DNA of 64,000 bases from Candidatus Calditenuaceae archaeon (GCA_025058055.1 JANXEU010000007.1:379-64378); one strand, 5' to 3'. Shown: positions 2,735 to 40,088, counted from the first letter of the stretch. The notes: generated by a model from the sequence alone, not told the origin. Program-made: numbers and translations.

Positions 2735-2738
2735 AGGA

Positions 2739-3263
2739 TTGTCGCAAACGACGGTCGCCGAAACTATTAAGGGGTTCATGAGATCTTATCCTCAGGGAGT
2801 GAGCGTTTCCACCACTACTCATAACTCCAAGCCCTGGGGGTTAACGGTAAGCTCGTTCACGTCGATATCACTGGACCCGCCGTTGGTGATGATCTCGATA
2901 GCCAAAGGTTCAAAGAGCCACGAAGTTTTCACGAAGTCCGATAACTTCGCAATAAATATGCTCGCTACGGGACAGGAGAGTATAGCGGAGATATTCGCAG
3001 GCAAAGTGCCTCCGGAGAGGAGGTTTGAACACGTGAGATACAGGTATGGCAAGTCCGGTGCTCCAATTCTCACGGATTGTAGTGCCTACCTAGACTGTAA
3101 AAATTACCGGACATACGACGGTGGTGATCACAGCATCATCCTGGGAGAAGTTATAGACGGTGCCGTGTCAGGACCGTTCTCGCCACTCGTCTACTTCAAC
3201 AGGAGGTACACTACAGTAGCCATCACGTATCTGGAAACAGTCTTTGCACCCGATCCATGGTGA
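2739..3263 (+). CDS. hpaC: Flavin reductase-like domain protein (HpaC-type reductase partner)
   Basis: 174 aa. Flavin_Reduct-like pattern (GLTVSSFTSISLDPPLVMISI ... ILGEV). It starts 4 nt after the hpaB stop, so it is probably translationally coupled. Confidence 0.7.
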   Translation: MSQTTVAETIKGFMRSYPQGVSVSTTTHNSKPWGLTVSSFTSISLDPPLVMISIAKGSKSHEVFTKSDNFAINMLATGQESIAEIFAGKVPPERRFEHVRYRYGKSGAPILTDCSAYLDCKNYRTYDGGDHSIILGEVIDGAVSGPFSPLVYFNRRYTTVAITYLETVFAPDPW

Positions 3264-3322
3264 CGTGATTTTTTATCAGGGTTGATTTAATAGATACGAG
3301 CAATGTAGGTTAGGGTATAGAC

Positions 3323-7057: not shown

Positions 7058-7285
7058 ATGCTGAATATATCCGTATTTCGCAAGTTTCGTCGAGCCACGA
7101 GGCTCCCAAGGCTACCGCTCGGTCATCAAGCGACAAGTAGATATACGATCGGCTGTAATAATGGAAGGACTAATGACGAGGTTTGGTCTGGTATTGCCGA
7201 ACATAAATTTTGAAGAGGAGGGCCGGTTCTTTGATCTCGGGTCACTCGCGTTCTATCACCCCTACAGAATTGAGGTGCGTTTGTG

Positions 7286-9568: not shown

Positions 9569-11992
9569 ATGCCCGAAGGGGGAGTTAAACCCGGCGAGCA
9601 CCGAACCCAGATGAAATTTAAGTGGATTGGAAGACCCATGAAGAGGAAAGAGGACCTGAGGTTCCTGACCGGAAAGGGGCTATTCACCGACGATCTGAAG
9701 ATTCATAACGCGCTTCACGCAGTTATCCTGAGAAGTCCATATCCGCATGCGAGGATAAAATCTATCGATACCCTCAGAGCGGAGAAGCTTCCTGGCGTTC
9801 GGGCGGTTTTAATTGGGGCGCACTTGAAAGACCTCATCTCACCCTTTAGGCACCTCATCGACGTCCCACCTTACTACCCAATGGCGGTTGACAAGGTTCG
9901 ATACGTCGGAGAGCCGGTGGTGGCGCTGGCTGCAGAGGACAAATACACCGCGAGGGACGCTACCGAATTGATCGACATCGATTACGAGCCTCTGGATGCC
10001 GTGGTGGATGTGAAAGACGCCTTGAGGGAGGGCGCGCCGCTGGTTCACGAGGGGTACGAGCGGAACGTTGCTTGGCACAGGGAGTTCTCGTACGGAGACC
10101 CGGAGGAGGCTTTTTCGAGAGCTGAATGGGTAGTCCGTGGCACTTACAGATTCCACAGGTACAGTTCCACGCCTCTGGAGCCCTACGCTTGTGCGGTCCA
10201 CTTCGACCGAGGCACGGGTGTACTGACGGTCTGGGACCAAAACCAACAGGTAGGGCTTTACAGGGCTAGGTTCCCAGCGGCCATGAGAATGCCAGAGCAC
10301 TTGGTCAGACACATCACTTTGGACATAGGTGGAGGGTTTGGAAACAAGGTTATGTGTTACAGCACCTCTGCAATCGTTGCAGCGCTCGGTATTCTCACTG
10401 AAAGACCTGTGAAGTGGATGGCCGCAAGGAGCGAGGACATGTCACAAGTCCAGTCTGCCGACAGGCTTGCGGAGGTTGAGATGGCTCTCAGGAAGAACGG
10501 TGAGATTATCGGAATGAAGGTCAAGATATTTGAGAACATAGGAGCTTGGCTGAGACATCCTGAACCTCAGACCATAACGAGAGGGTTCTTCACCTTCACC
10601 GGTGCGTACAGGATCAGGGACCTATACATCGACGCGACGGCGGTGTTCACGAACAAGGCCCCAACTGTCCCAAATAGAGGCTACGGATGCCATCCGGCGT
10701 ATTTCCATCTCGAGCGCATGGTCGATAAGGCGGCCACGGAGCTGGGGATCGACGGAGCAGAACTGCGTCTCAGGAACTTCGTCCGACCCGAGGAGATGCC
10801 ATACACGACTCCCCTTGGCTGTGTTTACGACGGCGGTGACTACCCTGAGGCCCTGAAGCTGGTGATGGAGAAGATAGGTTACTGGGAGTTCAGGAGGAAA
10901 CAGCCGGATTATTGGGCGAAAGGCGTATACAAGGGGATCGGAGCGATCCTGATAGTTGAGCCGGCCTCAACACACGCCTCCGTGACCGCTCTCTGGGGGT
11001 CACCGATTCACCAAAGGTACGCGAGCACAAGTGAAGCTGCGATGGTAAGGGTTCACCCTACAGGCAAAGTCGTAGCGGCCTTAGGTACTGTTCCTCAGGG
11101 ACAGGGACACGAGACAGTGGTTGCACAGATAGTTGCAGACGTGTTATCTATAGACCCTGATGACGTAGAGGTCTTGCCGGGTTTCGACTCTCACACGCAC
11201 CCGTTCGGTGGTGAGTCGGGAACCTACGCGAGCAGATTCGCGGTCGTCGGAGCGGGTGCCGTATACGGAGCTGCAGTCGCCGTGAGGGAGAAGGCGCTCA
11301 GGATCGCTGCTAACCTCCTTGAGGTGAGGGCCGAGGACCTAGAGATGCAGGACGGTCGCATTTACGTCAAGGAGGATCCGAGCAGGTACGTCACTTTACG
11401 GGAGGTTGCCAGAGCAGCCTACCATCAGCTCGCCATGCTGCCGAAGGGCGAGGATCCCGGGCTCGAGGAGACATACACCTACAGGTTCCCTGTGGGCGAA
11501 CCGGCAGACGAGAAACTGAGATCGAACTACAGCTCATCATATGCATACATGGCGGGCGGCTGTATCGTGGAGGTAGACCCTGAGACTGGAAGCGTGAAGG
11601 TTGAGAGGCTGGTGATCGTGCACGACGCAGGCACCGTTCTGAACCCGCTGATCATGGACGGACAGGTTCACGGCGCTACGTACCATGGCATCGCAGGAGC
11701 GCTCCTGGAGGAGTTCGCGTACTCTCAGGACGGTTATCCTCTCGCTACGAACTTCGTCGACTACTTGGCACCAACTTCGGCAGACACACCAGACATGGAG
11801 GTGTACCACACCGAGCACCCCTCTCCCTTCTCGCCACTCGGGTCAAAGGGCAGTGGAGAGGGAACCACTATTCTGATGCCGCCACTGCTTGCATGTGCCG
11901 TTGAAGACGCCCTGAGGCCCTTCGCAGTCGAAGTGAACGAGCTCCCTCTCTCACCGCAAAGGTTGTGGAGCCTTATCGCCCGGCGGCGATGA
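9569..11992 (+). CDS. Molybdopterin-dependent hydroxylase large subunit, second tandem paralog
   Basis: 807 aa. Same family as the upstream paralog but with a deviant loop (VPNRGYGCHPAYFHLERMVD). The start could alternatively be ATG 9611 (MKFKWIGRP). Confidence 0.8.
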   Translation: MPEGGVKPGEHRTQMKFKWIGRPMKRKEDLRFLTGKGLFTDDLKIHNALHAVILRSPYPHARIKSIDTLRAEKLPGVRAVLIGAHLKDLISPFRHLIDVPPYYPMAVDKVRYVGEPVVALAAEDKYTARDATELIDIDYEPLDAVVDVKDALREGAPLVHEGYERNVAWHREFSYGDPEEAFSRAEWVVRGTYRFHRYSSTPLEPYACAVHFDRGTGVLTVWDQNQQVGLYRARFPAAMRMPEHLVRHITLDIGGGFGNKVMCYSTSAIVAALGILTERPVKWMAARSEDMSQVQSADRLAEVEMALRKNGEIIGMKVKIFENIGAWLRHPEPQTITRGFFTFTGAYRIRDLYIDATAVFTNKAPTVPNRGYGCHPAYFHLERMVDKAATELGIDGAELRLRNFVRPEEMPYTTPLGCVYDGGDYPEALKLVMEKIGYWEFRRKQPDYWAKGVYKGIGAILIVEPASTHASVTALWGSPIHQRYASTSEAAMVRVHPTGKVVAALGTVPQGQGHETVVAQIVADVLSIDPDDVEVLPGFDSHTHPFGGESGTYASRFAVVGAGAVYGAAVAVREKALRIAANLLEVRAEDLEMQDGRIYVKEDPSRYVTLREVARAAYHQLAMLPKGEDPGLEETYTYRFPVGEPADEKLRSNYSSSYAYMAGGCIVEVDPETGSVKVERLVIVHDAGTVLNPLIMDGQVHGATYHGIAGALLEEFAYSQDGYPLATNFVDYLAPTSADTPDMEVYHTEHPSPFSPLGSKGSGEGTTILMPPLLACAVEDALRPFAVEVNELPLSPQRLWSLIARRR

Positions 11993-12604
11993 AATTATCT
12001 CAATCAGGTCGGACCTCGTGAGTTTAACGTTGTAGAGGCTAGAGAACTTCCATAGCCCAAAGAGCTGTGCGGCTGGGGTCCTATCGGCTACACAGTCCAC
12101 AGGAACCACCACCCTGTAACCTCTGTGAAAGAGCCCAGACACTGTGTGATAGACGCAAGTAGTTGTCACGGCACCCGCAACAACTATCGTGGACCTTTCA
12201 GGCTTCAACCCGCGTGATTTGAGAGCTGCCTCCAATTCCGAGCTTAAGAAGGGATCGTAACAGTCCTTCTCAACTACAACGTCGGTTGGCGTGAGGTTCA
12301 GCTCGTCTACCAACTCGAACCCCCACTCACCTTTACGTGGATACGTCCTTGACTCTAGACCGGCGAACCTCGGATCCTTAGGATCGAAGTGAACTTTGGT
12401 GAAGAAGACCCACGCACCATGAGCTCGAAACACATCGAGAAGTCTTATGACGTTGGGTAGTATCTCTTGAGAAGTCTCAAGATATTTGCGACCTCGCGGA
12501 TGACAATATTCACGTTGAAGGTCCACTACGATTAAAGCGTCGGAACTTCTGTCGAGCTTAATCGCGACCGGTTCGGGAACGCTCCATTCCTCGGGAATGG
12601 ACAT
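11951..12604 (-). CDS. Isochorismatase-family (cysteine) hydrolase
   Basis: The ORF track's start is TTG at 12631. The more plausible ATG at 12604 gives MSIPEEW... The isochorismatase hallmark ALIVVDLQREY is present. It sits 15-40 nt downstream of livM on the same strand. Confidence 0.6.
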   Translation of the reverse strand: MSIPEEWSVPEPVAIKLDRSSDALIVVDLQREYCHPRGRKYLETSQEILPNVIRLLDVFRAHGAWVFFTKVHFDPKDPRFAGLESRTYPRKGEWGFELVDELNLTPTDVVVEKDCYDPFLSSELEAALKSRGLKPERSTIVVAGAVTTTCVYHTVSGLFHRGYRVVVPVDCVADRTPAAQLFGLWKFSSLYNVKLTRSDLIEIISSPPGDKAPQPLR

Positions 12605-12646
12605 CAACGCGTTTTTGAACTTAGTGCGCAACTTAGATTCCCCACC

Positions 12647-13621
12647 TCAAAATATCAAACTGGTCCATCGTCTTAGAACCGAGACGAGCCCGTTTCTGAA
12701 AACGGAGAACAATATAACAAGCACCGCACCGTACACGCTGAGTGATATGGGTCCCAAATACCGAACATTTTCGTTGATGTACGTAAAGATAACAGAACCT
12801 ATAACGGGTCCCATGACAGATGCCAACCCGCCAAAAACCGCCATTACCTGAGAAAGGATGTCTATGCTCGCAAAAGAGTAGTAGATAGGAGCGACCAGCC
12901 CATTGAAGTATCCGTAGAGGGCTCCTGCTGCACCGATGACGAAACCAGATATCGAGGCTACAATCACCTTGACACGTGTAACGTTAATTCCGACGACCTC
13001 CGAGGCCAGCTCCTCGCTCTTTACAGCCTTCATTATAAGACCCCATCTGCTCCTTTCCAACAACCAGTACCTTACGACAATCCACAGAATCGCCAAAGAG
13101 ACCGCTATGAAGTAGTTCGTCAATTCCAAACCCAGTGTCGCTTCCAATGGGCCCAGGCTGAGGGTGGGTGGCCGAAAGCCTGTGTCACCTCCTGTGACGC
13201 TGACTAAACCAGTTACGACGTTCTCGAAGATGAGCTGAAAAGAGAGCGTTAGGATCGCAACGAAAGCGACTCCAAGCTTTCTGACGTTAGACACGTAGCT
13301 CAGACCCGCCGCGACTCCGGCCGACATCACCGAACCGATTACTATAGTAAGCCACTGACTCAACCCGAAGTGAAGGCTGAGCAAGCCGCTGACATAGGCT
13401 GAGATCCCCGCTAGCGCAGCGACGCAGAGGAAGAGCTGATTCGTTCCGCCGAACAGAAGCGCAAAGGAACCTGCGAACACGGTGAAGTACGCCATTTGAG
13501 TCAAAATCCTCCAGTAGTATCGTCCGGTGAAGACGAAAGGGAGAACTATCAGAACCGCGATGAGGGCTAGCAGCGCGTAAAACTTGAGACTGTCTGATGT
13601 CAGACCGGAGCTGGGTCGCAA
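12647..13621 (-). CDS. livM: Branched-chain amino acid-type ABC transporter permease (LivM-like)
   Basis: 324 aa polytopic membrane protein with the LivM/BPD_transp_2 pattern. Confidence 0.75.
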   Translation of the reverse strand: MRPSSGLTSDSLKFYALLALIAVLIVLPFVFTGRYYWRILTQMAYFTVFAGSFALLFGGTNQLFLCVAALAGISAYVSGLLSLHFGLSQWLTIVIGSVMSAGVAAGLSYVSNVRKLGVAFVAILTLSFQLIFENVVTGLVSVTGGDTGFRPPTLSLGPLEATLGLELTNYFIAVSLAILWIVVRYWLLERSRWGLIMKAVKSEELASEVVGINVTRVKVIVASISGFVIGAAGALYGYFNGLVAPIYYSFASIDILSQVMAVFGGLASVMGPVIGSVIFTYINENVRYLGPISLSVYGAVLVILFSVFRNGLVSVLRRWTSLIF

Positions 13622-13632
13622 ATCCTCCTCCC

Positions 13633-14322
13633 CTACGGAGCCATTGGGAATTCCTGCACACCTTTCTCCCTGAAGACCTTCTCGAAACCGTAGATCTCGT
13701 ATGAAGTCTTGCCTTGGTCGTAGAGCCTCCTGCTCTCCCTCTCCCTCTCCTCCCTCTGCTTGGCTCGCTGCAAAACTTCCGCCGCTATCTCCCGAGGTAC
13801 AACCACTACACCGTCGTCGTCACCTACTATCACATCACCAGGTTTCACTAGGACTCCGCCGCAGATGACAGGCACGTTGATTGAACCCGGGTGCATCTTC
13901 GAGGACCCAATCGGGGAGACGTGTCGCGCGAACACTGGAAAACCCATCCTCCGGATCTCGGCAACATCTCTAACCGAACCGTCAACGACCACGCCGGCGA
14001 TGCCTTGACGCTTCGCCTGATAGCTCATCAAACCTCCCCACATGACGCCTAGAAGTCCGCTAGCGGCGATCACGATGACGTCACCTGGCTTGGCGAGGGC
14101 CATTGCTCTGTGCACCGTAACGTTGTCTGCGGGGTAACTGTTCACAGTGAGGGCAGGTCCAACCAGCTTAACGTCTTGTGCTATAGGCTTGATCTCAGGG
14201 TCCATAACGCACCTGTATTCCTTACTGATCGACTCGTAAACTGTTGAAGCCCCGAGGTCTTTGAAAGCATCTATTATCTCCCTCGGTAACTTAGGAAAAT
14301 CCCTGTAGACTATCGAGGTCAT
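13633..14322 (-). CDS. RraA-family protein / class II HMG-CHA aldolase-like (4-hydroxy-4-methyl-2-oxoglutarate aldolase family)
   Basis: ~229 aa from ATG 14322 (MTSIVYRDFPKLPREIIDAFKDL...). The ORF track starts at GTG 14343. RraA fold motifs are present (GDVIVIAASG...GGLMS...GIAGVVVDGSVRD..GDVIVGDDDGVVVVP), plus a ~60 aa C-terminal extension as in ProA/LigK-type aldolases. Confidence 0.7.
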   Translation of the reverse strand: MTSIVYRDFPKLPREIIDAFKDLGASTVYESISKEYRCVMDPEIKPIAQDVKLVGPALTVNSYPADNVTVHRAMALAKPGDVIVIAASGLLGVMWGGLMSYQAKRQGIAGVVVDGSVRDVAEIRRMGFPVFARHVSPIGSSKMHPGSINVPVICGGVLVKPGDVIVGDDDGVVVVPREIAAEVLQRAKQREERERESRRLYDQGKTSYEIYGFEKVFREKGVQEFPMAP

Positions 14323-14381
14323 CCTTATCCCGGAGGATGCCACCTGCTAATATATCTGATTCGCGTCTGTTTGAGAACGGT

Positions 14382-15275
14382 TCACTCGAACTCTCCGAGA
14401 ATCCCCTCGGGTCTGCTGAGGAGGACGACAGCAGCTGCCAACAACATTATCACCACGGACATGAAGGTGCCGACCAAGAAGCTCGCAACCATGTAAACTA
14501 TCCCCAGCAGAACACCCGATATGACCGTTCCCAGGATGCTTCTCACGCCGCCGACCACGCTGATCAACAGCGCGAGCACCGTAATCTCTATGCCAGACTC
14601 AGGCCCAATAGTGGCCGCCAACCCCCTCATTATGCCCGCAGCTCCAGCGAGGCCGCAACCCAGCACGAAGGTGATGAGCCTCATTCTGTCAATGGGGATG
14701 CCCGTAATCTCTGCTCCGGTCTCGTTCTGAGAGACTGCCCTTATGGCCTTACCTATTATCGTCGCCCTCAAGAGCGCTGCTAGAAGCATGAGCAACCCCA
14801 AGGATATGAGAGCGGAGAGGATCGCCGAAAACCGAAACGACATCCCCATAATCGTGATGGTCTGAACCTCGGGTCTGATAGAAAGGTAAACTGTCGGGAA
14901 CTGATTGGTGAAGTAGCCGTGAAGCAAAAGATAGAGGCCCAAAGTGATGAAGAGCCCGAGGAGCACGCGCTGCTCGCCCACGGACCTGAAGGCCGGCAGC
15001 AGAACCACCTTATAGACGAAGCCTCCGAAGGCGGCTGCGAGAGCAACACCTGCGAATGTTGCAGGGAAGACACCAATCGAGGGAATGAGCAGTGCCGCCG
15101 AGACGGAGGCGATCACCGCGAACTCGCCGTGTGAGATGTTGAGAATGTGAGCCTGACCGAATATCATTGTGATTCCGACAGCGACTAGTGCCAGCTGAAG
15201 CCCAAAAGTCACGCCGTCAACGATAATCACAGGCAGCTGCGAGATAAGGACAGCGGGGTTTTCTGCCACCATCAC
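14382..15275 (-). CDS. livH: Branched-chain amino acid-type ABC transporter permease (LivH-like)
   Basis: 297 aa membrane protein. It overlaps the livF stop by 4 nt. Confidence 0.75.
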   Translation of the reverse strand: MMVAENPAVLISQLPVIIVDGVTFGLQLALVAVGITMIFGQAHILNISHGEFAVIASVSAALLIPSIGVFPATFAGVALAAAFGGFVYKVVLLPAFRSVGEQRVLLGLFITLGLYLLLHGYFTNQFPTVYLSIRPEVQTITIMGMSFRFSAILSALISLGLLMLLAALLRATIIGKAIRAVSQNETGAEITGIPIDRMRLITFVLGCGLAGAAGIMRGLAATIGPESGIEITVLALLISVVGGVRSILGTVISGVLLGIVYMVASFLVGTFMSVVIMLLAAAVVLLSRPEGILGEFE

Positions 15276-15997
15276 GATCCACCGAGATAGTTGGCTCTCA
15301 CCCGTGGGTCTTGAGTCAGCACACGTGCGTCGCCTTTCATAACCACACGCCCACCCTCAAGCACGTAGACGAGCTCGCAGACCTTGAGCACAAGAGTTAC
15401 CTTCTGCTCTACCAGCAGTATCGTGAGGTCCTCGTTAAGGTCGCTGAGAAGGCGAAGCGAGTTGAAAAGCTCCTCCGTCAATAGAGGCGCCAGACCAGTC
15501 GACGGTTCGTCCAGTAAAAGAAGTCGGGGAGAGGACATCAAAGCCCTTCCGATGGCGAGCATTTGTTGCTCTCCACCGCTGAGCGTTCCCGCCTTCTGGT
15601 TCAACCGCTCGCGCAACCTTGGGAACAAGGAGAAGACGTAATCGAGGTTCTTCTCTATCTGGTCCTTGGCACGCGCCGTGTACGCACCTAGCTCAAGGAT
15701 CTCCTTCACAGTCATTTTCGGGAAAAGTTCCTTCTCAGCAGGAACGTACGCAATCCCCATCTTGACCCTCTCGTACGCAGGTACACCGTTTAGCCGCTTC
15801 CCCTCGAGAATTACCTCGCCCTTCTTAGGTTGTATGAGGCCAGCAACGGCCCTCATGAGAGTGGTCTTTCCAGCTCCGTTAGGCCCAATAACTCCAACTC
15901 TCATCCTCCGCTCAGGGATCTCTAAGTTAACCCCCCAAAGGACCTGAAACTCACCGTAACCAGCCTCTAGACCCTTTACCTCTAGGTAGGCGGTCAA
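15272..15997 (-). CDS. livF: ABC transporter ATP-binding protein (LivF-like)
   Basis: Walker A GPNGAGKTT, signature LSGGEQQ, Walker B LLLLDEP. Confidence 0.8.
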   Translation of the reverse strand: MTAYLEVKGLEAGYGEFQVLWGVNLEIPERRMRVGVIGPNGAGKTTLMRAVAGLIQPKKGEVILEGKRLNGVPAYERVKMGIAYVPAEKELFPKMTVKEILELGAYTARAKDQIEKNLDYVFSLFPRLRERLNQKAGTLSGGEQQMLAIGRALMSSPRLLLLDEPSTGLAPLLTEELFNSLRLLSDLNEDLTILLVEQKVTLVLKVCELVYVLEGGRVVMKGDARVLTQDPRVRANYLGGS

Positions 15998-16737
15998 ATC
16001 TCCACGCTCCTCCCGAGATATGCCTCGATTACCCTGCTGCTCTCCGCAATCTCAGACGGCGTACCCTCTGCTATGATCTCACCGAAATTCAGAACAACGA
16101 CCCTCTGCGCCAACCTCATTACAGCCCTGAGAAGGTGCTCTATCCAGAGAATCGTAACGCCGCTCTCCTCGTTCACCCTCCTCAACAGCTTTACAGCCTC
16201 GTCCACTTCAGAGGGGTTTAACCCGCTCATGTACTCGTCAACGAGAAGGAGTTTCGGCTGCTGGACGAGGGCCCTCGCGAGTTCGACGGACTTCTTCTCC
16301 TGCAGGTTCAGCTTCTTCACCTCGATGTCCGCTTTACTCTCCAAACCCAAGAACCTCAGGACCTCCTCGGCTATACTTGTAGCGTCGGGCACCCCTCGTG
16401 CTCTCCCGCTCCCTATCGCGCCCACAGCGACGTTCTCTATGACCGTCATGTCACCGAAGGGCCGTGGAATTTGGAAGGTCCTCGACATCCCTAAACGCGC
16501 TCTCTCATAGGGCGGCAGTTTAGTGACGTCCCGACCGTAAAAGACTACTCTACCTGACGTGGGTGGGTAGAGGCCGTTGATCACGTTGAAGAGGGTTGTT
16601 TTCCCCGCCCCGTTAGGCCCTATTATCGCGAGAATCTCACCTTCCGATACGGAGAACGAGACGTTCTTCAGCGCCGGCAACCCACCAAAGCGCTTGCTGA
16701 CCTGATCTAAGGAGAGCGCGACAGGCCGACGATCCAT
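15994..16737 (-). CDS. livG: ABC transporter ATP-binding protein (LivG-like)
   Basis: Walker A GPNGAGKTT, signature MSGLNPSE-like, LLLVDE Walker B. It has a 4-nt overlap with livF. Confidence 0.8.
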   Translation of the reverse strand: MDRRPVALSLDQVSKRFGGLPALKNVSFSVSEGEILAIIGPNGAGKTTLFNVINGLYPPTSGRVVFYGRDVTKLPPYERARLGMSRTFQIPRPFGDMTVIENVAVGAIGSGRARGVPDATSIAEEVLRFLGLESKADIEVKKLNLQEKKSVELARALVQQPKLLLVDEYMSGLNPSEVDEAVKLLRRVNEESGVTILWIEHLLRAVMRLAQRVVVLNFGEIIAEGTPSEIAESSRVIEAYLGRSVEI

Positions 16738-16937
16738 TCTTCCACTGCATACTTTTGAATGATATTTAAATGTATAACATCAGGTACCTAAGTAAGGGAA
16801 AGTCGTGCGGTGAAGGTCTTTCACGTCGTCCGAGGAGAAGTCGGTTAATACCGCGTGAAAAACGCGGCACGGCCCCTCGATTCGCCTAAAAAGATATAAA
16901 AGGGGTGCTGTCTTTCTGCGGCCAGAGTAGGCAAGAA

Positions 16938-18857
16938 ATGGCGCGACACAGCCGCGACCTGAAGGACATGTACGAGTGGGCTGAATCGGACTACTTAGGG
17001 TTCTGGAAGAGCTTCGCTTCAAACGTGGACTGGTTCAGCAAATGGGACGAGGAGTTCTCTTGGGATCGAGAGGAGCACAAGTTCGAATGGTTCCGCGGCG
17101 CACAGACTAATTTATGCTATAACTGCGTCGATAGACATGCCACCGATCCGGAGCTCAGATGGAAACCCGCAATAGTGTGGTGGTCTGAGGGTGCCTCTTC
17201 GAGGAGGGCAATAACCTATTGCGAGTTGTTGGATAGGGTCAGCAGATTCGCCGCTGTTTTGAGGGACAGCGACGTGAAAAGAGGGGACAGGGTAGGGATC
17301 TACATGTCAATGGTGCCTGAGGCCCTGATAGCCATGCTCGCAGCGGTCCGAATTGGGGCGATCCACGTGAACTTCTTCTCCGGCTTGGGAGTGGAATCCG
17401 TTGCGAAGAGGGTCTCTGAGGTCTCACCGAAGATCATGATTGCATTGGACGTGGCCTATCGGCGCGGAAGAGAAATTCAACTCAAAAGTACGCTAGATGA
17501 AGCGCTAGAACTCTCAGGTCATCGTTGCAAGGTGCTCCTCTTTGAACGCAGGCCTGAAGGTGAACCACGCTTGGTGAACGGCGACGAGCGCCTCAGGCCG
17601 ACCACCCTCTCAGACGCGAGTGATCGCGACCGCGTCGAATGCTCGAAGATGGAGTCCAACGAACCAGCTTTCATCAACTTCACCTCTGGCACTACTGGAC
17701 GACCTAAGGGAGTAGTCCATGTTCACGGCGGTTTTCAAGTTGGAATGCCTGCGGCTACGCACATGACGTGCGGTATGAGAGCAGAAGACGTCAGCTTCTG
17801 TCTGGCAGACATAGGATGGATCGGAGGTACTGCTTATGCGGTTTACGCGCCTTTGTTTTTCGGGAGCACTACCGTGCTTTATGAGGGAGCGATCGATTAC
17901 CCGACATCCGACGTCCTTTGGAAGATCGTAGAGGCCGAGCGCGTCACTCTCATGTGGACCTCGCCCACCGCGATGAGATTGCTGATGAAGCACGGCCCTG
18001 AACCGGCAAGGAAACACGACATCACAAGCCTGCGATATGTCCTCTGTGGAGGCGAAGTCCTAACATCACCCGTTAGGAAATGGTTCGAGGAGAACGTTTT
18101 ACCTGAGGGAACGGTGCTCATCGATCACATGGGACAGACCGAGGCAGGATGTATGATGATAACTTACCCATTTGGGCTTGCGAGCGACCTGATCATTAAA
18201 CCCGGTGCTTGTGGCTTCCCGCTGCCCGGGATGATCGTGAGAGTCGTCGGTGAGGACGGAAAGCCCGTGCCGGTGGGGGTGAAAGGTGAGATGGTCGTCG
18301 AGAAGCCATTCCCAAGTCTTACGCCGACCGTCTGGGGCGACCACTCGAGATACGTTGAGGATTACTGGAGCAAATACCCTGGAAGGTACAGAGTGGGCGA
18401 TATGGCGTACGTCGATGCGGATGGTTACGTCTACTTGTTGGGTAGGGCTGATGAGACGCTCAAGGTCTCGGGACATAGGATTGGTGCGCCTGAGCTCGAG
18501 ACGGTTATTTCAGAGCTGCCAGAGGTCGCTGAGGTGGCTGTCGTTGGGGTCCCTGATGAAGTCAAAGGCGAGGTAGCCGTAGCCTACGTCGTTCTGAGGC
18601 AGGGCAAATCCCCCTCTAAGGATCTGACTGATGCCATCGCTACAGAGGTAAAGAGAAAGTACGGCGCGATCGCCGATGTCAGATATGTCGTGTTCGTGAG
18701 CTCCCTACCGAAGACACGGACCGGTAAGATAATGAGACACCTTCTCAAGGCCATCGCCCGAAGAACGGAGCTCCCCGATTACTCGAACATAGAGGAGGAG
18801 TCCATCGTCGCAGAGTTAGTGGCTAAAACGAATGAAGCGCTACAGAATGGGAAATGA
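16938..18857 (+). CDS. AMP-forming acetyl-CoA/short-chain acyl-CoA synthetase (ACS family)
   Basis: ACS N-terminal domain (DYLGFWKSFA...), P-loop FTSGTTGRPKGVVH, C-terminal LPKTRTGKIMR. The ORF track starts at GTG 16905; ATG 16938 (MARHSRDLKDMYEW) is preferred. Confidence 0.8.
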   Translation: MARHSRDLKDMYEWAESDYLGFWKSFASNVDWFSKWDEEFSWDREEHKFEWFRGAQTNLCYNCVDRHATDPELRWKPAIVWWSEGASSRRAITYCELLDRVSRFAAVLRDSDVKRGDRVGIYMSMVPEALIAMLAAVRIGAIHVNFFSGLGVESVAKRVSEVSPKIMIALDVAYRRGREIQLKSTLDEALELSGHRCKVLLFERRPEGEPRLVNGDERLRPTTLSDASDRDRVECSKMESNEPAFINFTSGTTGRPKGVVHVHGGFQVGMPAATHMTCGMRAEDVSFCLADIGWIGGTAYAVYAPLFFGSTTVLYEGAIDYPTSDVLWKIVEAERVTLMWTSPTAMRLLMKHGPEPARKHDITSLRYVLCGGEVLTSPVRKWFEENVLPEGTVLIDHMGQTEAGCMMITYPFGLASDLIIKPGACGFPLPGMIVRVVGEDGKPVPVGVKGEMVVEKPFPSLTPTVWGDHSRYVEDYWSKYPGRYRVGDMAYVDADGYVYLLGRADETLKVSGHRIGAPELETVISELPEVAEVAVVGVPDEVKGEVAVAYVVLRQGKSPSKDLTDAIATEVKRKYGAIADVRYVVFVSSLPKTRTGKIMRHLLKAIARRTELPDYSNIEEESIVAELVAKTNEALQNGK

Positions 18858-19090
18858 ATTCGTTTACAGCTCAAGGTATGATAGTGCGTTGAACCATAGA
18901 AACGTCGAGCGATCTCAAGCATGGTTTAATGAGCTTCTGCCTTCGGACATACCTCACGTTCGTGATCGCCCAGAGCCTAGACCCGAGAAGTTTTCTTCTC
19001 CTGTTGATGAATCCGTCGACGTCCCTTACGCGCTATCCAATTTCAGATTGAGAACCTGATTGTGTCATTGCACGCCTATCCGATTCAACA

Positions 19091-19100
19091 CGTTGATATA
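19091..19100 (+). promoter_or_regulatory. TATA box upstream of the SDR gene
   Basis: tgatataaag lies about 28-37 nt upstream of ATG 19128. Confidence 0.4.
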
Positions 19101-19127
19101 AAGCAAGTTAGGTTTGCTCTTAATGGC

Positions 19128-20078
19128 ATGAGGATACTAATCACAGGGACAGGTTTCATAGCGAGCTATGTGGCTAAGAAGCTCCTCGATACGGGCGATG
19201 AGGTCACGCTTTACGGCTATTTCGAGAACCCACAGGCTATGGCTAACGTGATCGGCGACTTGGAGAAGGTCGGGAGAGTTAAGGGCGACGTGCTCGAGAC
19301 AGATCATCTGATTCGTACAGTGAAGGAGCGGGAGGTGGATGCTATAGTACACACCGCTGCAGTACTTATCGCTGGTGCGAGGGAGAACCCCTTCAACGCG
19401 GTTAAGGTTAACGTGCTTGGAACGGCATCGGTTCTAGAGGCCGCTCGAACGACTGATGCCAAGAAGGTGGTGTACACGAGCTCCGGAAACGTCTATTCTA
19501 TGTTGAACCCGTTCATCAAATATCTTCCACCCGAAGGCGGCCTCGTTAAGGAAGACGACCAGACAATACCCGGGAGCGTTTACGGAACCACGAAACTCGC
19601 AAGCGAACTCTTAGGCTTGAACCACTCGCAGATATACGGAATCGACTTCGTGGCCCTCAGGCTTCCAACAGTCTACGGCGGCTGGCTTGGTGCCATGGGA
19701 CTAGCCAGCGTCGTGAGGGATATGTGCAGGGCCGCGCTGAGATCTGAACCTTTGACGGTTGAAGAGTACAAGAGCGAATGGTTGCATGTGAAGGATGCAG
19801 CGCTTGCCTGTCAACTCGCCGTTCACTCTAAGAACCTCAAGAACAGAATATTCAATATCGGTACCGCGAAAATAAACTCACTTCGCGAGGCACTTGACGC
19901 GATCTCCGAAGAGCTGAAAAGACCGATCAACAACATAACGATCAAGGAGGTCCAGCGACCGCTTAGGTATCCGGTGGATATAAGCAGGGCGAGGGAGGAG
20001 TTGGGGTTCGAGCCTCAATTCGACTTCAAGTCCGGTGTGATAGATGTCTTGAAGTGGGTACGTTCCTACTACGTCTGA
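19128..20078 (+). CDS. NAD-dependent epimerase/dehydratase (extended SDR) family oxidoreductase
   Basis: MRILITGTGFIASYVAKKLL Rossmann motif. The ORF track starts at GTG 19062. The ATG at 19128 is preceded by TGATATAAAG about 30 nt upstream. Confidence 0.7.
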   Translation: MRILITGTGFIASYVAKKLLDTGDEVTLYGYFENPQAMANVIGDLEKVGRVKGDVLETDHLIRTVKEREVDAIVHTAAVLIAGARENPFNAVKVNVLGTASVLEAARTTDAKKVVYTSSGNVYSMLNPFIKYLPPEGGLVKEDDQTIPGSVYGTTKLASELLGLNHSQIYGIDFVALRLPTVYGGWLGAMGLASVVRDMCRAALRSEPLTVEEYKSEWLHVKDAALACQLAVHSKNLKNRIFNIGTAKINSLREALDAISEELKRPINNITIKEVQRPLRYPVDISRAREELGFEPQFDFKSGVIDVLKWVRSYYV

Positions 20079-20204
20079 CTCCTCTTTCTAAAGGGCTGAA
20101 CGCAGAGCGTCAATCTCCGAACAAGAGGGCACGAATGGAAAGACTTCTAATTACACTCCGATAATCAAGAGGTTTAACGTTGCACCGCGATTAAGGGTCA
20201 ATAT

Positions 20205-20216
20205 TTATATATAAAT
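20205..20216 (+). promoter_or_regulatory. TATA box (tttatatataaa) for ligB-ligA-thioesterase operon
   Basis: A canonical archaeal A/T box lies 28-39 nt upstream of ATG 20244. It is too close to ATG 20226 to serve that start, which supports the downstream start. Confidence 0.55.
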
Positions 20217-20243
20217 GAATGCCATATGAATCTCGAGACGACC

Positions 20244-21062
20244 ATGGTAAAAATTGTGGGTGCATTTGCGACTTCTCACACGCCACAGATCCTCGTCCAG
20301 CCTAAGATCTCAGAAGAGTTCACTAGGCAGCTCCAAGAGGTCCACAACGCCCTTATGCAGGTGGGGAGGAGGATAAAGGAAGCGAACGCAGACACGATAA
20401 TAGTGTTCGGGTCGGATCACATGGAGACGTTCTGGTTGAACAACTACCCGCAACTACTTCTGTTCACGGGGAAGGAGGTTGGTGGGAAGTTCGCTGGGTA
20501 CGAGCTGAGGTTGCCAGCTGACCCGGAACTCTCCAAGGAGTTGCTCTACGGGTTAATTGATTTGGGATTCGACGTCTCCTTCGCCCATGAGCTTGAGCTT
20601 GACCACCCCTATATCTCACCGACGTATTGGGTGCTGAAGGGAGCACAGCACGACTCTTACAGACCGAGAATGATACCATTCCACATCAACAGCAACGTCG
20701 ACCCACGAATCAAACCGAGAAGGGCCTTCGAGCTCGGAAAGGCCATCAGACAGGTCTTGGACGGATCGAAGCTTCAGAACAGAGTTGCCCTGTTAGCGAC
20801 GGGGGGGCTGTCCCACTTCGTCGGCACGCCTTTCTACGGGAAGGTGGATGTCGAGGCTGATAACTTCCTCATCGAGAAGATGAAGGCAGGCAAGGGTTAC
20901 GAGCTGGCCGACCTTACGACGGACTGGCTCGATGAGCATGGCGAGTTCGAGTTCAGAACTTGGCTGACGCTGATAGGGGCCGTGAACAGCGCTCCTGCAG
21001 AGATCATCACTTATCAGAGGGCTTGGCACGCAGGATATTGCGTAGCCTCCTTTAAGGTTTAG
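20244..21062 (+). CDS. ligB: Class III extradiol ring-cleavage dioxygenase catalytic subunit (LigB family; protocatechuate 4,5-dioxygenase beta / gallate dioxygenase-like)
   Basis: MVKIVGAFATSHTPQ... parallels LigB MARVTTGITSSHIP. Fe-binding His motifs are present (GSDHME..., HELELDHPY). The ORF track starts at ATG 20226, but the TATA position favours 20244. Confidence 0.7.
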   Translation: MVKIVGAFATSHTPQILVQPKISEEFTRQLQEVHNALMQVGRRIKEANADTIIVFGSDHMETFWLNNYPQLLLFTGKEVGGKFAGYELRLPADPELSKELLYGLIDLGFDVSFAHELELDHPYISPTYWVLKGAQHDSYRPRMIPFHINSNVDPRIKPRRAFELGKAIRQVLDGSKLQNRVALLATGGLSHFVGTPFYGKVDVEADNFLIEKMKAGKGYELADLTTDWLDEHGEFEFRTWLTLIGAVNSAPAEIITYQRAWHAGYCVASFKV

Positions 21063-21081
21063 ATAAAGAGGTGAGAAGATA

Positions 21082-21384
21082 ATGGTGATCCTATACGGCT
21101 ATCCTGACCCGAAGTACCTGAATTTGTACAAACTCGGCAGAGCCATACACTTGGACCCGCAAGTAAGAGAGAAGTTCAAACTGGACAGAGAAGCGGTGAT
21201 GAACGAGTTCAAGCTCTCTGAGGAAGAAAAAGAGCTCGTCAGATCAGCCGACCCAGTCAAGTTGTTCAAGGCCGGTGTCTCACCCTATACAATCTTCTTC
21301 ATCTGCTGGGAGGGTTACGGATTCATGCAAAAGCCGATTGAAGAACAGATGATGTACAAAAGAATTAAAGAGACACAGCTCTAG
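21082..21384 (+). CDS. ligA: Small subunit of LigAB-type dioxygenase (LigA-like, PF07746-like) - tentative
   Basis: 100 aa ORF 20 nt after the ligB stop with a GGTGA Shine-Dalgarno-like element 9 nt upstream. Its size and position fit a LigA partner. Sequence-level assignment is not certain. Confidence 0.45.
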   Translation: MVILYGYPDPKYLNLYKLGRAIHLDPQVREKFKLDREAVMNEFKLSEEEKELVRSADPVKLFKAGVSPYTIFFICWEGYGFMQKPIEEQMMYKRIKETQL

Positions 21385-21390
21385 AGAATT

Positions 21391-21798
21391 ATGGTTAGAA
21401 GCGTAAAACTGAAGTTCGTGGTGGATTTTTTCGACATCGATGCAAGTGGATGGATAAACGGAGCTGTATACTTCCAATACAACAACAGAATTTTTGAAGA
21501 GTTGCTTAGGAGTAACGGCTACGAATTAAGAGGGCTACTGGAGCGAGGATACGGTTTTCCTCCGGTTCACTACAGAATCGACTACAAGAACGCGGTGATA
21601 TACGGTGACGTTCTTGAAGGTGAACAGGTGGTGACAAGGGTGGGTCGTTCCTCACTTGAGACTGAGTTCAACTTCAGGCGTGCCGATGGTGAATTGATCG
21701 CTCTGGGTACCGTGGTCAGAGTGTTCACAGACATGAGACGCAAGCAATCCGTACCTATTCCTGAAGAGCTGAGGGAGAGACTGTTAAGGGACTTATAG
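21391..21798 (+). CDS. Hotdog-fold acyl-CoA thioesterase (4HBT/YbgC-like)
   Basis: 135 aa. VVDFFDIDASGWINGAVYFQYNN... is the typical 4HBT N-terminal strand-helix. It starts 7 nt after the ligA-like stop. Confidence 0.6.
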   Translation: MVRSVKLKFVVDFFDIDASGWINGAVYFQYNNRIFEELLRSNGYELRGLLERGYGFPPVHYRIDYKNAVIYGDVLEGEQVVTRVGRSSLETEFNFRRADGELIALGTVVRVFTDMRRKQSVPIPEELRERLLRDL

Positions 21799-21845
21799 TG
21801 AAAACATCAATGTGATAACTAAGAAAAAGGGGCGTTTTATTTTCA

Positions 21846-23069
21846 CTACTGCGCAGGTCTGTAGGGCTCTACCGGTGAAGACCTGAATACGACTCTTGGT
21901 ACCCACTTCGCTCCAGGGTTGATCGAGCCGGGGTCTCCTCTCTCGAACTTGTAAAGGATTATTCTGGCCTCTTTGAACTCGCCCCACTCGGTATAGCTCA
22001 ACGGCCACGCGAGCAGCGGGTGATCGAATCTACTGGTCCTGATGTAGTCCGCCACCTTGACCGGATCGACAGATTGAGTCCTCTCGATTGCGTTGGCGAT
22101 GAGCAGTACGTTCAGATACCCGGTCGCTGCGTGGATGTCGAAGAACATGTTGTTAGTACGGTAGAAACGCTCAGCGATTTGTCTGTACTCTGGAGCATCG
22201 AAGTTTATGCACGAGAACTCCAGCAGTCCGGAGTTTATCAGACCGTCTTCTCCGAGGGCTGCCAGCCAGTTATCGACCGGAGTGTAGGAACCTACGAAGA
22301 ACCTAGGCCTCAGACCTATCTCCAGAGCCTGCTTGACGATCGTTGGACCGCCCGGCGGGTGACCCAGCGTAAGCACGACGTCTGGGTTGAGTGGCTGTAT
22401 CCTCCTCAGATAAGAGGTGAAGTCGGTCTCCCTCTGTGGTGCCTCTTCCATCTGATAATTGATGCCGCTGATGGTCTTTATCAGGCGATCTGAAGCGTCT
22501 CTAACCGCGAATCCCCACTCATAGGACGCTATGACGTTAGCGACGTTTCTGAGGTTCTGCTGCCTGATGAACTCAGCTACGGGCTGAGCGTTCATCGGGG
22601 CCGCTGGTAGACACGTTCTGAAGACATACCTGTTGGTTAACGTCAACAGCGTGTGAGACCCAGCCATGTGTAGCAAGAGGGTCACGCGAGCCTTGTTGGC
22701 CTCCGGTGTCAAAGCTGCGGCTATTCCGCTTGAGACTGGGCCGGTTACCGCTACGACCTTGTCCACATCGACGAGTCGTTGAAACGCCGCTACCGCCTCC
22801 TTGGCGTCGTTCTTATCGTCGTAAACCACCAGCTCGACGCGCGCGCCTAGAATGCCACCTCTGTCGTTGATCTCTTTTACCGCCATCTGAGCTCCAGCCA
22901 AGTGTTTCTTTCCCCACGTCGCGAAAGGTCCTGTTAGGGGGTTCAGCGCTCCTATCTTGACTGTCTCTACACCGAGTCTGGGTGCCAACAACGTCGGCAA
23001 CACAAACACTATGGCGATCGCAGCTACAATGACAGCTGCTACGCCCACCACTAAAATTCTCCTATTCAT
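21846..23069 (-). CDS. livK: Leu/Ile/Val-binding protein family ABC substrate-binding protein, membrane-anchored (LivK-like)
   Basis: Type I periplasmic-binding fold (IGALNPLTGPFATWGKKHLAGAQMAVKEIN) with an N-terminal TM anchor. The ORF track starts at GTG 23078; ATG 23069 is preferred. Confidence 0.75.
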   Translation of the reverse strand: MNRRILVVGVAAVIVAAIAIVFVLPTLLAPRLGVETVKIGALNPLTGPFATWGKKHLAGAQMAVKEINDRGGILGARVELVVYDDKNDAKEAVAAFQRLVDVDKVVAVTGPVSSGIAAALTPEANKARVTLLLHMAGSHTLLTLTNRYVFRTCLPAAPMNAQPVAEFIRQQNLRNVANVIASYEWGFAVRDASDRLIKTISGINYQMEEAPQRETDFTSYLRRIQPLNPDVVLTLGHPPGGPTIVKQALEIGLRPRFFVGSYTPVDNWLAALGEDGLINSGLLEFSCINFDAPEYRQIAERFYRTNNMFFDIHAATGYLNVLLIANAIERTQSVDPVKVADYIRTSRFDHPLLAWPLSYTEWGEFKEARIILYKFERGDPGSINPGAKWVPRVVFRSSPVEPYRPAQ

Positions 23070-23148
23070 GCAACCCACCAGATTGTGTTCTAAAATAAAA
23101 ATGCTTTGCAGGAAAGCGTATATGGTCGATGATCAGACCAGAGATCGT

Positions 23149-23856
23149 TTACTTACTCCGCTGCAACTGGAAGTACCTGTATTGTTGACGGGCCTCCCTG
23201 AGCGTCTTGCCGGACCTCACGGACTCGATGATCATCCTCTCCGCCTCTTCGATCTCCTTCGCGTCCCTGAGGACCTCACTCGCCCTCTCTTTGGGAACGC
23301 GGAGAAGCCCTGTGTCGTCGCCAACGATGATGTCGCCCGGCATGATCAGGACTCCGCCTGCCTGTACAGCCACGTTTATCCCATCTATCTGGAGCCGGTC
23401 CTTTCCGGTCCTAGGAATGGTACCTCTCGCGAAGATAGGATATCTGAATCTTAGTATGTTATCGTAATCTCTGAAGACGCCGTCTATCACGGTCCCCGCG
23501 ATCCCCAATTTCATCGCGGTAAAGGTCAGAATGTCTCCCCAACAGGTGTAGCTGGTCACGCCGCCGTTGTCAATCACGATAACGTCACCGGGTTGAGCGA
23601 GATCGAAAAGGTAGTCTCCGATGTCCTCCTTAGTTCCCTGCTCGGCTGGTGAGAGAGGGACGTACCTGACGGTTATGGCAGGGCCTGCGATCCTGACGCC
23701 TTGTACCATCGGACGTATGCCCTCTATTACTCCGCTGATCCTAGTGCGCTCCAATGAGTCAGATATGTTTGGTGTCGAAAGTTCCTTGAAAGCATCGACG
23801 ACGTCCCTTGAAGGTCTGCTCACCTCCTTAACCACAACGGGGTTATAATCACCCAT
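23149..23856 (-). CDS. RraA-family / HMG-CHA aldolase-like protein (paralog 2)
   Basis: MGDYNPVVVKEVSRPSRDVVDAFKEL...GDVIVIDNGG...GIAGTVIDGVFRD...GDIIVGDDTGLLRVP plus a C-terminal extension. The ORF track starts at GTG 23865. Confidence 0.7.
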   Translation of the reverse strand: MGDYNPVVVKEVSRPSRDVVDAFKELSTPNISDSLERTRISGVIEGIRPMVQGVRIAGPAITVRYVPLSPAEQGTKEDIGDYLFDLAQPGDVIVIDNGGVTSYTCWGDILTFTAMKLGIAGTVIDGVFRDYDNILRFRYPIFARGTIPRTGKDRLQIDGINVAVQAGGVLIMPGDIIVGDDTGLLRVPKERASEVLRDAKEIEEAERMIIESVRSGKTLREARQQYRYFQLQRSK

Positions 23857-23962
23857 CTCGTCCACACTCTCAAAGTCAGATTATTAAAAATGCTTGCTGC
23901 TGTTGTCGCAGAGTTAAAAGTTCTTGTCTGAGGGATAAATAGAACCTTGGCGATCCGAACTC

Positions 23963-24637
23963 ATGGTCTCGAGAAAGGTCGTGGACGAATTCGCGAAAAT
24001 TCCCACCTCAAACGTCTCCGACGCCCTCGACAGGTTCAGGATAAAGGGTGGGCTCGAGGACATTTCACCGATCGTGGACAACGTGAGAATCGCAGGTACG
24101 GCGTTCACGGTGAGGTTCGTTCCAGCCAATCAGGTAGAGTTGAAGCCCTGGGTCACGTACATAGACAAGGCCCAGCCTGGCGACGTGGTAGTGATCGATA
24201 ACGGCGGTAGGAAATATTGCACCGTTTGGGGAGGTCTTCTGTCCGCGAGAGCAAAGGACATGGGACTGAGGGGGACGGTGATCGACGGAGTCTGCAGGGA
24301 CATCGACGTTATCAGGGCGATTCGGTACCCGGTCTTCAGCAGAGGTCGGTTCATGATGACCGGTAAGGACAGGGTGCAGCTCGCGGGCCTCAACGAGCCG
24401 ATAAACATCGCAAACGTCCTCATCAAACCTGGTGACGTGATCGTCGCGGACGACAGCGGCGTCGTGGTGGTACCGCAAGAGAAGGCTGAAGAGGTGCTGG
24501 AGGCGGCGCTGGAGATCTACGAGAAAGAATCGAAGATCCTAGAGGAGGTGAAGCGGGGCGTACCGTTATCGGAGGCTAGGGCGAAATACGGTTACGGGGA
24601 ATTGCAGCGCCCCAAAGGCTTAACGCAATCGAAATAG
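23963..24637 (+). CDS. RraA-family / HMG-CHA aldolase-like protein (paralog 3)
   Basis: MVSRKVVDEFAKIPTSNVSDALDRF...GDVVVIDNGG...GLRGTVIDGVCRD...GDVIVADDSGVVVVP. It is divergent from paralog 2 and immediately upstream of the third Mo-hydroxylase. Confidence 0.7.
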   Translation: MVSRKVVDEFAKIPTSNVSDALDRFRIKGGLEDISPIVDNVRIAGTAFTVRFVPANQVELKPWVTYIDKAQPGDVVVIDNGGRKYCTVWGGLLSARAKDMGLRGTVIDGVCRDIDVIRAIRYPVFSRGRFMMTGKDRVQLAGLNEPINIANVLIKPGDVIVADDSGVVVVPQEKAEEVLEAALEIYEKESKILEEVKRGVPLSEARAKYGYGELQRPKGLTQSK

Positions 24638-24664
24638 TGGCCCCTAAATTGGGGGAAGACTACG

Positions 24665-30159: not shown

Positions 30160-30177
30160 CCCCTCGCAAGACGTGAG

Positions 30178-38444: not shown

Positions 38445-38468
38445 GTCTTGATGGCCACGAACTCTCTA

Positions 38469-40051: not shown

Positions 40052-40088
40052 CACGAGTGCTTCCAAAGGGCCGGTGATATCCTTCGCT

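Follow-up and report, generated by a model that had tools for sequence, protein, structure and literature searches.

An RraA-like gene between two permease genes

The window analysed here is a 64,000-nucleotide (nt) stretch of DNA from a Candidatus (Ca.) Calditenuaceae archaeon (GCA_025058055.1, JANXEU010000007.1:379-64378), and its lineage markers (thermosome, TBP and Topo VI-B) are archaeal. The Calditenuaceae and Caldarchaeales were formerly known as Aigarchaeota. Within the window, a gene for an RraA/HMG-CHA-aldolase-like protein, here called RraA1, lies between the two permease genes of an ABC importer operon. Open reading frame (ORF) calling and Pfam searches agree on the minus-strand order livG-livF-livH-[RraA1]-livM-[isochorismatase-family], just as an earlier note on this DNA had proposed, and the six ORFs fill the span 16737..11951 (~4.8 kb). 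The operon, whose genes are all on the minus strand, opens with two ATPase genes, the first encoding a LivG-like protein of 247 aa (15994..16737; PF00005, E 2e-29, plus PF12399, BCA_ABC_TP_C) and the second a LivF/UrtE-like protein of 241 aa (15272..15997; PF00005, ABC_tran). These are followed by permease 1 (LivH/UrtB-like, 297 aa; 14382..15275; PF02653, BPD_transp_2, E 3e-28), RraA1 (HMG/CHA-aldolase type, 229 aa; 13633..14322; PF03737, E 2e-46), permease 2 (LivM/UrtC-like, 324 aa; 12647..13621; PF02653, E 2e-25) and an isochorismatase-family cysteine hydrolase that is probably an amidohydrolase (217-226 aa; 11951..12631; PF00857, E 2e-40).

The junctions were read directly from the sequence. 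livF overlaps each of its neighbours by 4 nt (TTGA at the G/F junction and GTGA at the F/H junction), in agreement with the earlier note, and a gap of 15 nt separates livM from the isochorismatase-family gene. Of the two gaps of 38 and 11 nt that had been given on either side of RraA1, the 11 nt to livM stand, whereas the gap to livH is 59 nt when RraA1 begins at ATG 14322. The 38-nt gap presupposes a GTG start at 14343, which was rejected: the orthologues and the NCBI gene model all begin M-[ST]-S-[IV]-V, matching the ATG at 14322.

RraA1 is predicted to be a catalytic aldolase

RraA1 scores 158.5 bits against PF03737 (gathering threshold 24.5) and 202 bits against the NCBIfam equivalog model NF006731 (CHA aldolase/oxaloacetate decarboxylase; cut-off 179). 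The HMG/CHA aldolase of Pseudomonas putida F1 (PDB 3NOJ) aligns with it end to end (residues 2-223, 37% identity, E 8e-41). In this enzyme Arg-123 is essential while Asp-124 and Glu-199 bind metal (3NOJ numbering; PMC5065237), and members of the family generally show oxaloacetate decarboxylase activity (PMC5065237). Alignment places Arg-123, Asp-124 and Glu-199 as invariant in RraA1, its orthologues and both of its paralogues in the window, and RraA1 also keeps Asn-71, His-75, Gly-101, Gly-144, Lys-147 and Arg-195. Because of these family scores and the conserved catalytic and metal-binding residues, RraA1 is read as an enzyme and not as a regulator of the RraA type. It is predicted to be a catalytically competent, divalent-metal-dependent class II pyruvate aldolase/oxaloacetate decarboxylase of the HMG/CHA-aldolase (LigK/GalC) type, and the label that the earlier note gave to the gene appears to be right on the strength of PF03737, NF006731 and the 3NOJ match with its residues.

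The split-permease order is conserved within one archaeal clade

A genome scan with RraA1 gave four close archaeal loci and 76 distant loci, mostly bacterial. The nearest named relatives are Ca. Calditenuis fumarioli, a Calditenuaceae single-amplified genome and a Ca. Caldarchaeum sp.; a protein identical to RraA1 has also been deposited from a metagenome-assembled genome named 'Thaumarchaeota archaeon'. The order G-F-H-RraA1-M is present in Ca. Calditenuis fumarioli (loci L001-3, L014, L097; RraA1 identity 82%), in Calditenuaceae JGI OTU-1 (L012; 81%) and in Ca. Caldarchaeum sp. (L007/8, L015, L096; 79%). Three other lineages, represented by independent assemblies, share the embedded order with the window, and it is for this reason more than a chance arrangement. 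A metagenome scan with LivM returned only two loci (L096/L097), both in lineages already represented. Permease 1 is 72-74% identical to the permease at the same position in L001, L007 and L012, and livM directly follows RraA1 in every embedded locus as well as in L009/L010, which have no livG/F/H nearby.

A neighbour-joining tree groups the embedded loci in one clade. RraA1 is intact in each of them, with nonsynonymous divergence (dN) of ~0.11, saturated synonymous divergence (dS) and dN/dS of ~0.06-0.1; a low dN together with a saturated dS indicates strong purifying selection and old synteny. Dating the arrangement from dS failed, since synonymous sites are saturated. The earlier note had named a disrupted RraA-like ORF beside a retained transporter as a finding that would speak against it, and no such case was seen.

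Further out, the order dissolves. Orthologues with 73% identity (L004/L013) stand in tandem with another RraA-like gene, RraA3, beside DUF6282 and have no transporter nearby, and those with 72% identity (L009/L010) overlap livM by 4 nt with no livG/F/H within 10 kb. In L005/6 (65%) an uninterrupted G-F-H-M set occurs with its binding protein while RraA1 lies 5 kb away, at the island edge beside succinate dehydrogenase genes; the L011 orthologue (62%) also adjoins succinate dehydrogenase genes, without the island. Flanking permeases were found at 0 of the 76 distant loci. The insertion is therefore conserved in three other Calditenuaceae/Caldarchaeum lineages, but not among the 73% and 65% orthologues or the distant loci. 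Function does not require the arrangement, since RraA1 and the uninterrupted G-F-H-M set are 5 kb apart at 65% identity and other orthologues have no transporter nearby. It is a conserved but lineage-specific quirk of gene order in one archaeal clade and not a new type of system.

In L012 the isochorismatase-family and molybdenum (Mo) hydroxylase genes are absent from the position after livM, and the conserved core is for this reason taken to be H-RraA1-M. Here G-F-H-RraA1-M is followed by genes for a zf-AN1/M50 protease and an Fe-dependent repressor (L012 4747-6090), which in the window lie 17 kb further on (29392-30696); since they directly follow livM, much of the island must be absent from L012 or elsewhere in its genome. 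The 72% loci (L009 10001-11661, L010 9835-11495) combine RraA1 with a full-length livM-like permease and have a divergent CoA-ligase gene upstream; they represent either an orphan permease or what is left of the embedded order. Directly upstream of the TATA-like box of RraA1 in L004 (~9880-9965, plus strand) is a sequence that ends like the 3' half of a tRNA (GGGTTCGAATCCCACCCCCCGCA). ARAGORN makes no call on it; an archaeal tRNA with an intron is one possibility, a tRNA fragment left at a rearrangement point another.

A candidate promoter nested in the operon

Archaeal transcription starts ~26 nt downstream of the TATA box; the first gene of a message often has no leader, and Shine-Dalgarno (SD) motifs serve the internal genes. 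A candidate TATA box, P1 (ATTTAAAT; 16764..16771, minus strand), is placed 27-34 nt upstream of the livG-like ATG, and a candidate internal box, P2 (ATATATTA; 14348..14355, minus strand), 26-33 nt upstream of the RraA1 ATG, a spacing like that of P1. P2 is the sole all-A/T octamer in 11951-16737 (background 1.1% per 17-position window). Comparable A/T boxes precede other genes in the window that lead a unit (ACD, LigB, RraA2, thermosome, TBP and others), whereas the tightly coupled internal genes livF, livH and livM have no such box. The orthologous livH-RraA1 gaps (55-127 nt) cannot be aligned, yet an A/T box stands 23-25 nt before the ATG in every one, and a box is also found upstream of RraA1 in its non-embedded contexts. 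The 11-nt gap before livM (13622..13632, minus strand) is made up of the SD-like motif GGAGGAGG, and GGAGG-type motifs precede both livM and the isochorismatase-family gene. From the SD-like motif we infer that livM is coupled to the aldolase message. Taken together, the sequence signals suggest that P2 probably drives a leaderless RraA1-livM-(amidohydrolase) message as a unit inside the operon of the transporter.

An Rfam scan of 11000-25000 at E<=1 found neither a riboswitch nor any other known RNA, and a scan for sigma-70 promoters and intrinsic terminators, a model that does not apply to an archaeon, found no terminator in the livH-RraA1 gap. Since the gap holds neither a terminator-like site nor an Rfam element, read-through from the livG promoter P1 into RraA1 is likely. 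The earlier note had taken the embedding to strongly imply co-expression, with an internal promoter or terminator as the counter-evidence. That implication is weakened by the positionally conserved TATA-like box, which predicts an internal promoter, although read-through from livG probably occurs.

No regulatory motif shared by the 11 island promoter regions was found in a search for 9-mers (1 mismatch, >=5 regions). Only GCA(A)AGCATTTTTA was noted by eye, in the promoter regions of both RraA2 and the binding-protein gene (23866-23962 and 23079-23148), where it overlaps the TATA-like box; it may be a site for a shared regulator or a duplicated promoter.

The transporter and its probable binding protein

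The window contains the gene set of a HAAT-family (Liv/Urt-type) importer, with two PF02653 permeases, two PF00005 ATPases and, 5 kb off, a Peripla_BP_6 binding protein. At the level of equivalogs, every Liv and Urt model is scored far under its cut-off, with the LivFGHM/UrtBCDE set represented by LivG at 201 against 362 bits, LivH at 77 against 379 and UrtB at 107 against 250. The designation 'Liv-type' therefore holds for the superfamily and not for any LivGFHM or Urt equivalog.

The probable cognate substrate-binding protein (410 aa; 21846..23078, minus strand; PF13458, E 1e-59) is encoded directly downstream of RraA2 by the only Peripla_BP_6 gene found. The earlier note had correctly located it 5 kb away beside the second RraA paralogue, with the coordinate 23069 where 23078 is right. 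Its assignment as the cognate protein is supported by L005, in which an uninterrupted transporter with subunits 44-54% identical to those of the window adjoins a binding protein 49% identical to the one here. The binding-protein gene is near LigB in the three contexts that have both (the window, L001-3 and L005/6). In Escherichia coli LivJ, residues S79, T102, Y202 and E226 hold the alpha-ammonium and alpha-carboxylate groups of the ligand. When four archaeal binding proteins were aligned with LivJ, at only 21% identity, S79 was kept while T102 was replaced by G, Y202 by H and E226 by S or A. With the caution that such an alignment requires, this argues against a canonical amino-acid ligand.

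For the isochorismatase-family protein encoded last in the operon, the best PDB matches are N-carbamoylsarcosine-amidase-like proteins and RutB, and the Asp/Lys/Cys motifs are present in its sequence. These amidase matches, together with the Mo-hydroxylases described below, keep a heteroaromatic or amide substrate possible. The 3' end of this gene overlaps that of a convergent Mo-hydroxylase gene by 42 nt (11951-11992), a pairing kept in L001, L007 and L009.

RraA paralogues and the surrounding catabolic genes

The window has three RraA-like paralogues in a stretch of 11 kb, all with the Arg-Asp and Glu metal/catalytic motif. RraA2 (238 aa; 23149..23865, minus strand) is ~37% identical to RraA1 and keeps R123, D124 and E199. 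RraA3 (224 aa; 23963..24637, plus strand), which did not appear in the earlier note, is divergently oriented from RraA2 and keeps the Arg-Asp and Glu motif. Orthologues of RraA1 and RraA3 adjoin in L004, L094 and L095, a hint that the two proteins may catalyse consecutive steps or form a hetero-oligomer. A co-directional gene for a Mo-hydroxylase large subunit (24665-27106, 813 aa) begins 27 nt after RraA3, and the pair is kept in L009 (1649-4741); the literature searched contained no report of such a pairing between an RraA-fold protein and a CoxL/aldehyde-oxidoreductase-like subunit.

The genes around the operon resemble a catabolic island, with HpaB/HpaC, an ADP-forming acyl-CoA synthetase, two AMP-forming ligases, an SDR, LigB/LigA, a 4HBT thioesterase, DUF6282 and Amidohydro_2. 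The LigB-like and LigA-like extradiol dioxygenase subunits, encoded together with the thioesterase (20226..21798, plus strand), match at the level of the family but score below all dioxygenase equivalog cut-offs, and the best PDB match is the gallate dioxygenase DesB (E 1e-16). An HpaB-like oxygenase, a flavin reductase and the ADP-forming acyl-CoA synthetase form a trio (1274-5437) that is kept in L007 and L009; it suggests a route from aryl-CoA through aryl-acid to catechol that would feed the dioxygenase. Three large subunits of the xanthine-dehydrogenase family (7283-9535, 9569-11992 and 24665-27106) have glyceraldehyde dehydrogenase alpha and CoxL as their best models, all below cut-off, and no FAD or 2Fe-2S subunit gene was seen adjoining them in the window. 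DUF6282 (311 aa; 27184-28119) recurs beside RraA-like genes in L004, L005, L094 and L095. No PDB sequence matches it, and the literature searched contained no paper on it; it is a candidate for a hydratase or hydrolase step. Identification of the amidohydrolases as LigI or LigJ was unsupported: Amidohydro_2 matches only the uncharacterised structures 3IRS and 3CJP, and DUF6282 none.

Around RraA1 orthologues down to 55% identity, LigB/LigA, HpaB, CoA ligases, DUF6282 and SDR recur in reshuffled order. Because of this repeated co-location with LigAB, HpaBC, CoA-ligase and DUF6282 genes, a shared catabolic role of the aldolase, transporter and binding protein is plausible. The functional coupling claimed in the earlier note gains from the shared island and from the long conservation, but close relatives keep the same genes apart.

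Two features elsewhere in the window are unrelated to the RraA1 locus: a homologue of the SBP56 selenium-binding protein (49728-51119, minus strand; E 4e-185) and a run of CofD-, nitroreductase- and MobA-like genes (37914-40730, minus strand) that looks like F420/molybdopterin cofactor biosynthesis.

Discussion

We consider it probable, with moderate confidence, that RraA1 belongs to a Calditenuaceae aromatic-catabolic island, that its promoter is nested in the operon and that the importer serves an aromatic or heteroaromatic acid. According to this model, an aldolase gene with its own TATA promoter would have come to lie between two permease genes in one clade, and the locus would consist of two nested units, with P1 serving livG-livF-livH and P2 a leaderless aldolase-livM-amidohydrolase message. 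With livM placed behind the aldolase promoter, the transporter would depend for its completion on expression of the final enzyme in the pathway. The importer and its separately located binding protein would take up an aromatic or heteroaromatic acid, not an amino acid; hydroxylation, ring fission and hydration would convert it to a 4-hydroxy-2-oxo-acid, and RraA1 would cleave this to pyruvate and an oxo-acid, being able also to decarboxylate oxaloacetate.

Several observations weigh against this model. RraA1 scores 168.7 bits against the stricter equivalog TIGR02798 (ligK_PcmE), whose cut-off is 304.5, and the LigB-like protein, the amidohydrolases and the SDR score far under the LigAB, LigI, LigJ and LigC family cut-offs. 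No LigC- or LigU-type family is among the family matches of the window proteins, and the canonical set for protocatechuate 4,5-cleavage or gallate (LigAB, LigC, LigI, LigU, LigJ, LigK) is not demonstrated. The best PDB sequence matches of the binding protein are amino-acid binders (3IPC, 3TD9 and LivJ), and the comparison of LivJ residues is set by an identity of 21%. Succinate dehydrogenase genes adjoin the RraA1 orthologues of 62-65% identity, one of which has no aromatic genes in its vicinity, and this fits an oxaloacetate decarboxylase of central metabolism. Finally, the activity of P2 as a promoter is inferred from sequence.

The alternative that draws most on these points is a neutral rearrangement, in which RraA1 serves central metabolism on its own as an oxaloacetate decarboxylase/pyruvate aldolase, landed between livH and livM with its promoter by shuffling of the island and has no link to the imported substrate. 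A promoter-like box precedes RraA1 in every context, the island is heavily reshuffled between lineages, and the succinate dehydrogenase neighbourhood and the oxaloacetate decarboxylase activity general in the family (PMC5065237) both suit such a protein. It does not, however, account well for an order that persists over four lineages beyond synonymous saturation, for the RraA1-livM adjacency that survives with a 4-nt overlap in L009/L010, or for orthologues down to 55% identity that are again found by LigB, DUF6282 and CoA-ligase genes; we regard this explanation as unlikely, while giving it real weight. A smaller share of belief goes to an amino-acid route, which seems to us rather improbable. 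Here the importer would take up aromatic or branched-chain amino acids, the island would degrade 4-hydroxyphenylacetate (4-HPA) derived from tyrosine and RraA1 would replace an HpaI-type aldolase. The amino-acid binders among the PDB matches are in keeping with this, as are the conserved trio of HpaB, HpaC and ADP-forming acyl-CoA synthetase and the match of HpaB to the 4-HPA 3-monooxygenase model (E 3e-86, though below cut-off). However, in the alignment at 21% identity each of the four archaeal binding proteins has G, H and S/A in place of LivJ T102, Y202 and E226, the HpaD model matches LigB at only E 6e-7, no HpaE/F/G/H homologues were found and RraA1 keeps the residues of the CHA/HMG enzymes.

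Two further explanations invoke contact between RraA1 and other proteins. It is highly improbable that RraA1 docks on the importer, through LivM or the ATPases, and channels or senses the end product of the pathway or gates uptake. Phosphohistidine-domain proteins, which are related to the RraA fold, regulate transporters, and an aldolase-permease partnership is hinted at because the RraA1-livM pair persists, overlapping by 4 nt, in L009/L010 without livG/F/H nearby, and because L012 keeps the H-RraA1-M core without the rest of the island. E. coli RraA acts on RNase E as a protein-binding regulator. We give next to no credence to a non-catalytic, protein-binding role of this kind for RraA1, with the transporter or an RNA-processing enzyme as its target. 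All that speaks for it is that RraA1 has the fold and family (PF03737) of such a regulator and that its gene stands in a transporter operon. Against it, RraA1 keeps the full catalytic and metal-binding motif, includes in its 229 aa a C-terminal helix, characteristic of the aldolases, that bears Glu-199, and scores far under the cut-offs of the RraA regulator equivalogs (75 against 136 bits for NF006875, 28 against 241 for TIGR02998).

Several known systems resemble the locus, and two of them, CouPSTU and a Calditenuis LigAB operon, are precedents for the aromatic-acid model. RraA1 has in common with HMG/CHA aldolase (LigK, GalC; Pseudomonas putida F1, 3NOJ) the fold, the family and the catalytic, metal and phosphate-site residues, and it too lies in an island with a LigAB-type dioxygenase. 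It differs in that it comes from an archaeal thermophile with two further paralogues and is encoded inside a transporter operon; unlike in LigK systems, the remainder of the protocatechuate 4,5-cleavage set (LigC, LigI, LigU, LigJ) is not recognisable around it. In CouPSTU of Rhodopseudomonas palustris, a LivK-family binding protein takes aromatic acids and the transporter genes are clustered with catabolic genes (PMC3610893). The window likewise combines a LivK-family binding protein with transporter genes clustered with catabolic genes, but the setting is archaeal with leaderless and SD-type signals, the binding-protein gene is 5 kb away and an enzyme gene with its own predicted promoter splits the permease genes. 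The E. coli LivJ/K-LivHMGF importer shares with that of the window two PF02653 permeases, two ATPases (one with a BCA_ABC_TP_C tail) and a Peripla_BP_6 protein; its gene order is K-H-M-G-F and not G-F-H-[aldolase]-M, the window proteins score far under its equivalog cut-offs, and the residues that bind the alpha-amino acid are not conserved (21% identity alignment). Closest in lineage is the LigAB-containing operon of 'Ca. Calditenuis aerorheumensis', reported with its aromatic substrate unidentified (Beam et al, 2015; PMC4681859). It shares the archaeal family and the LigA/LigB genes with the window, whereas an RraA-type aldolase, paralogues and a split-permease operon are not described there. 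A literature search on RraA-like aldolases in archaea found no paper.

RraA1 adds a new, uncharacterised protein to an enzyme family already known, and its gene cluster, which joins transport with catabolism, is likewise of a known type. Should the nested-promoter model prove true, the locus would be an archaeal case in which formation of a complete importer depends on whether the final enzyme of the pathway it feeds is expressed. The locus marks an uncharacterised ring-cleavage island in uncultured hot-spring Caldarchaeales, and it provides a shortlist of proteins for substrate identification: the aldolase, the binding protein and the amidohydrolase.

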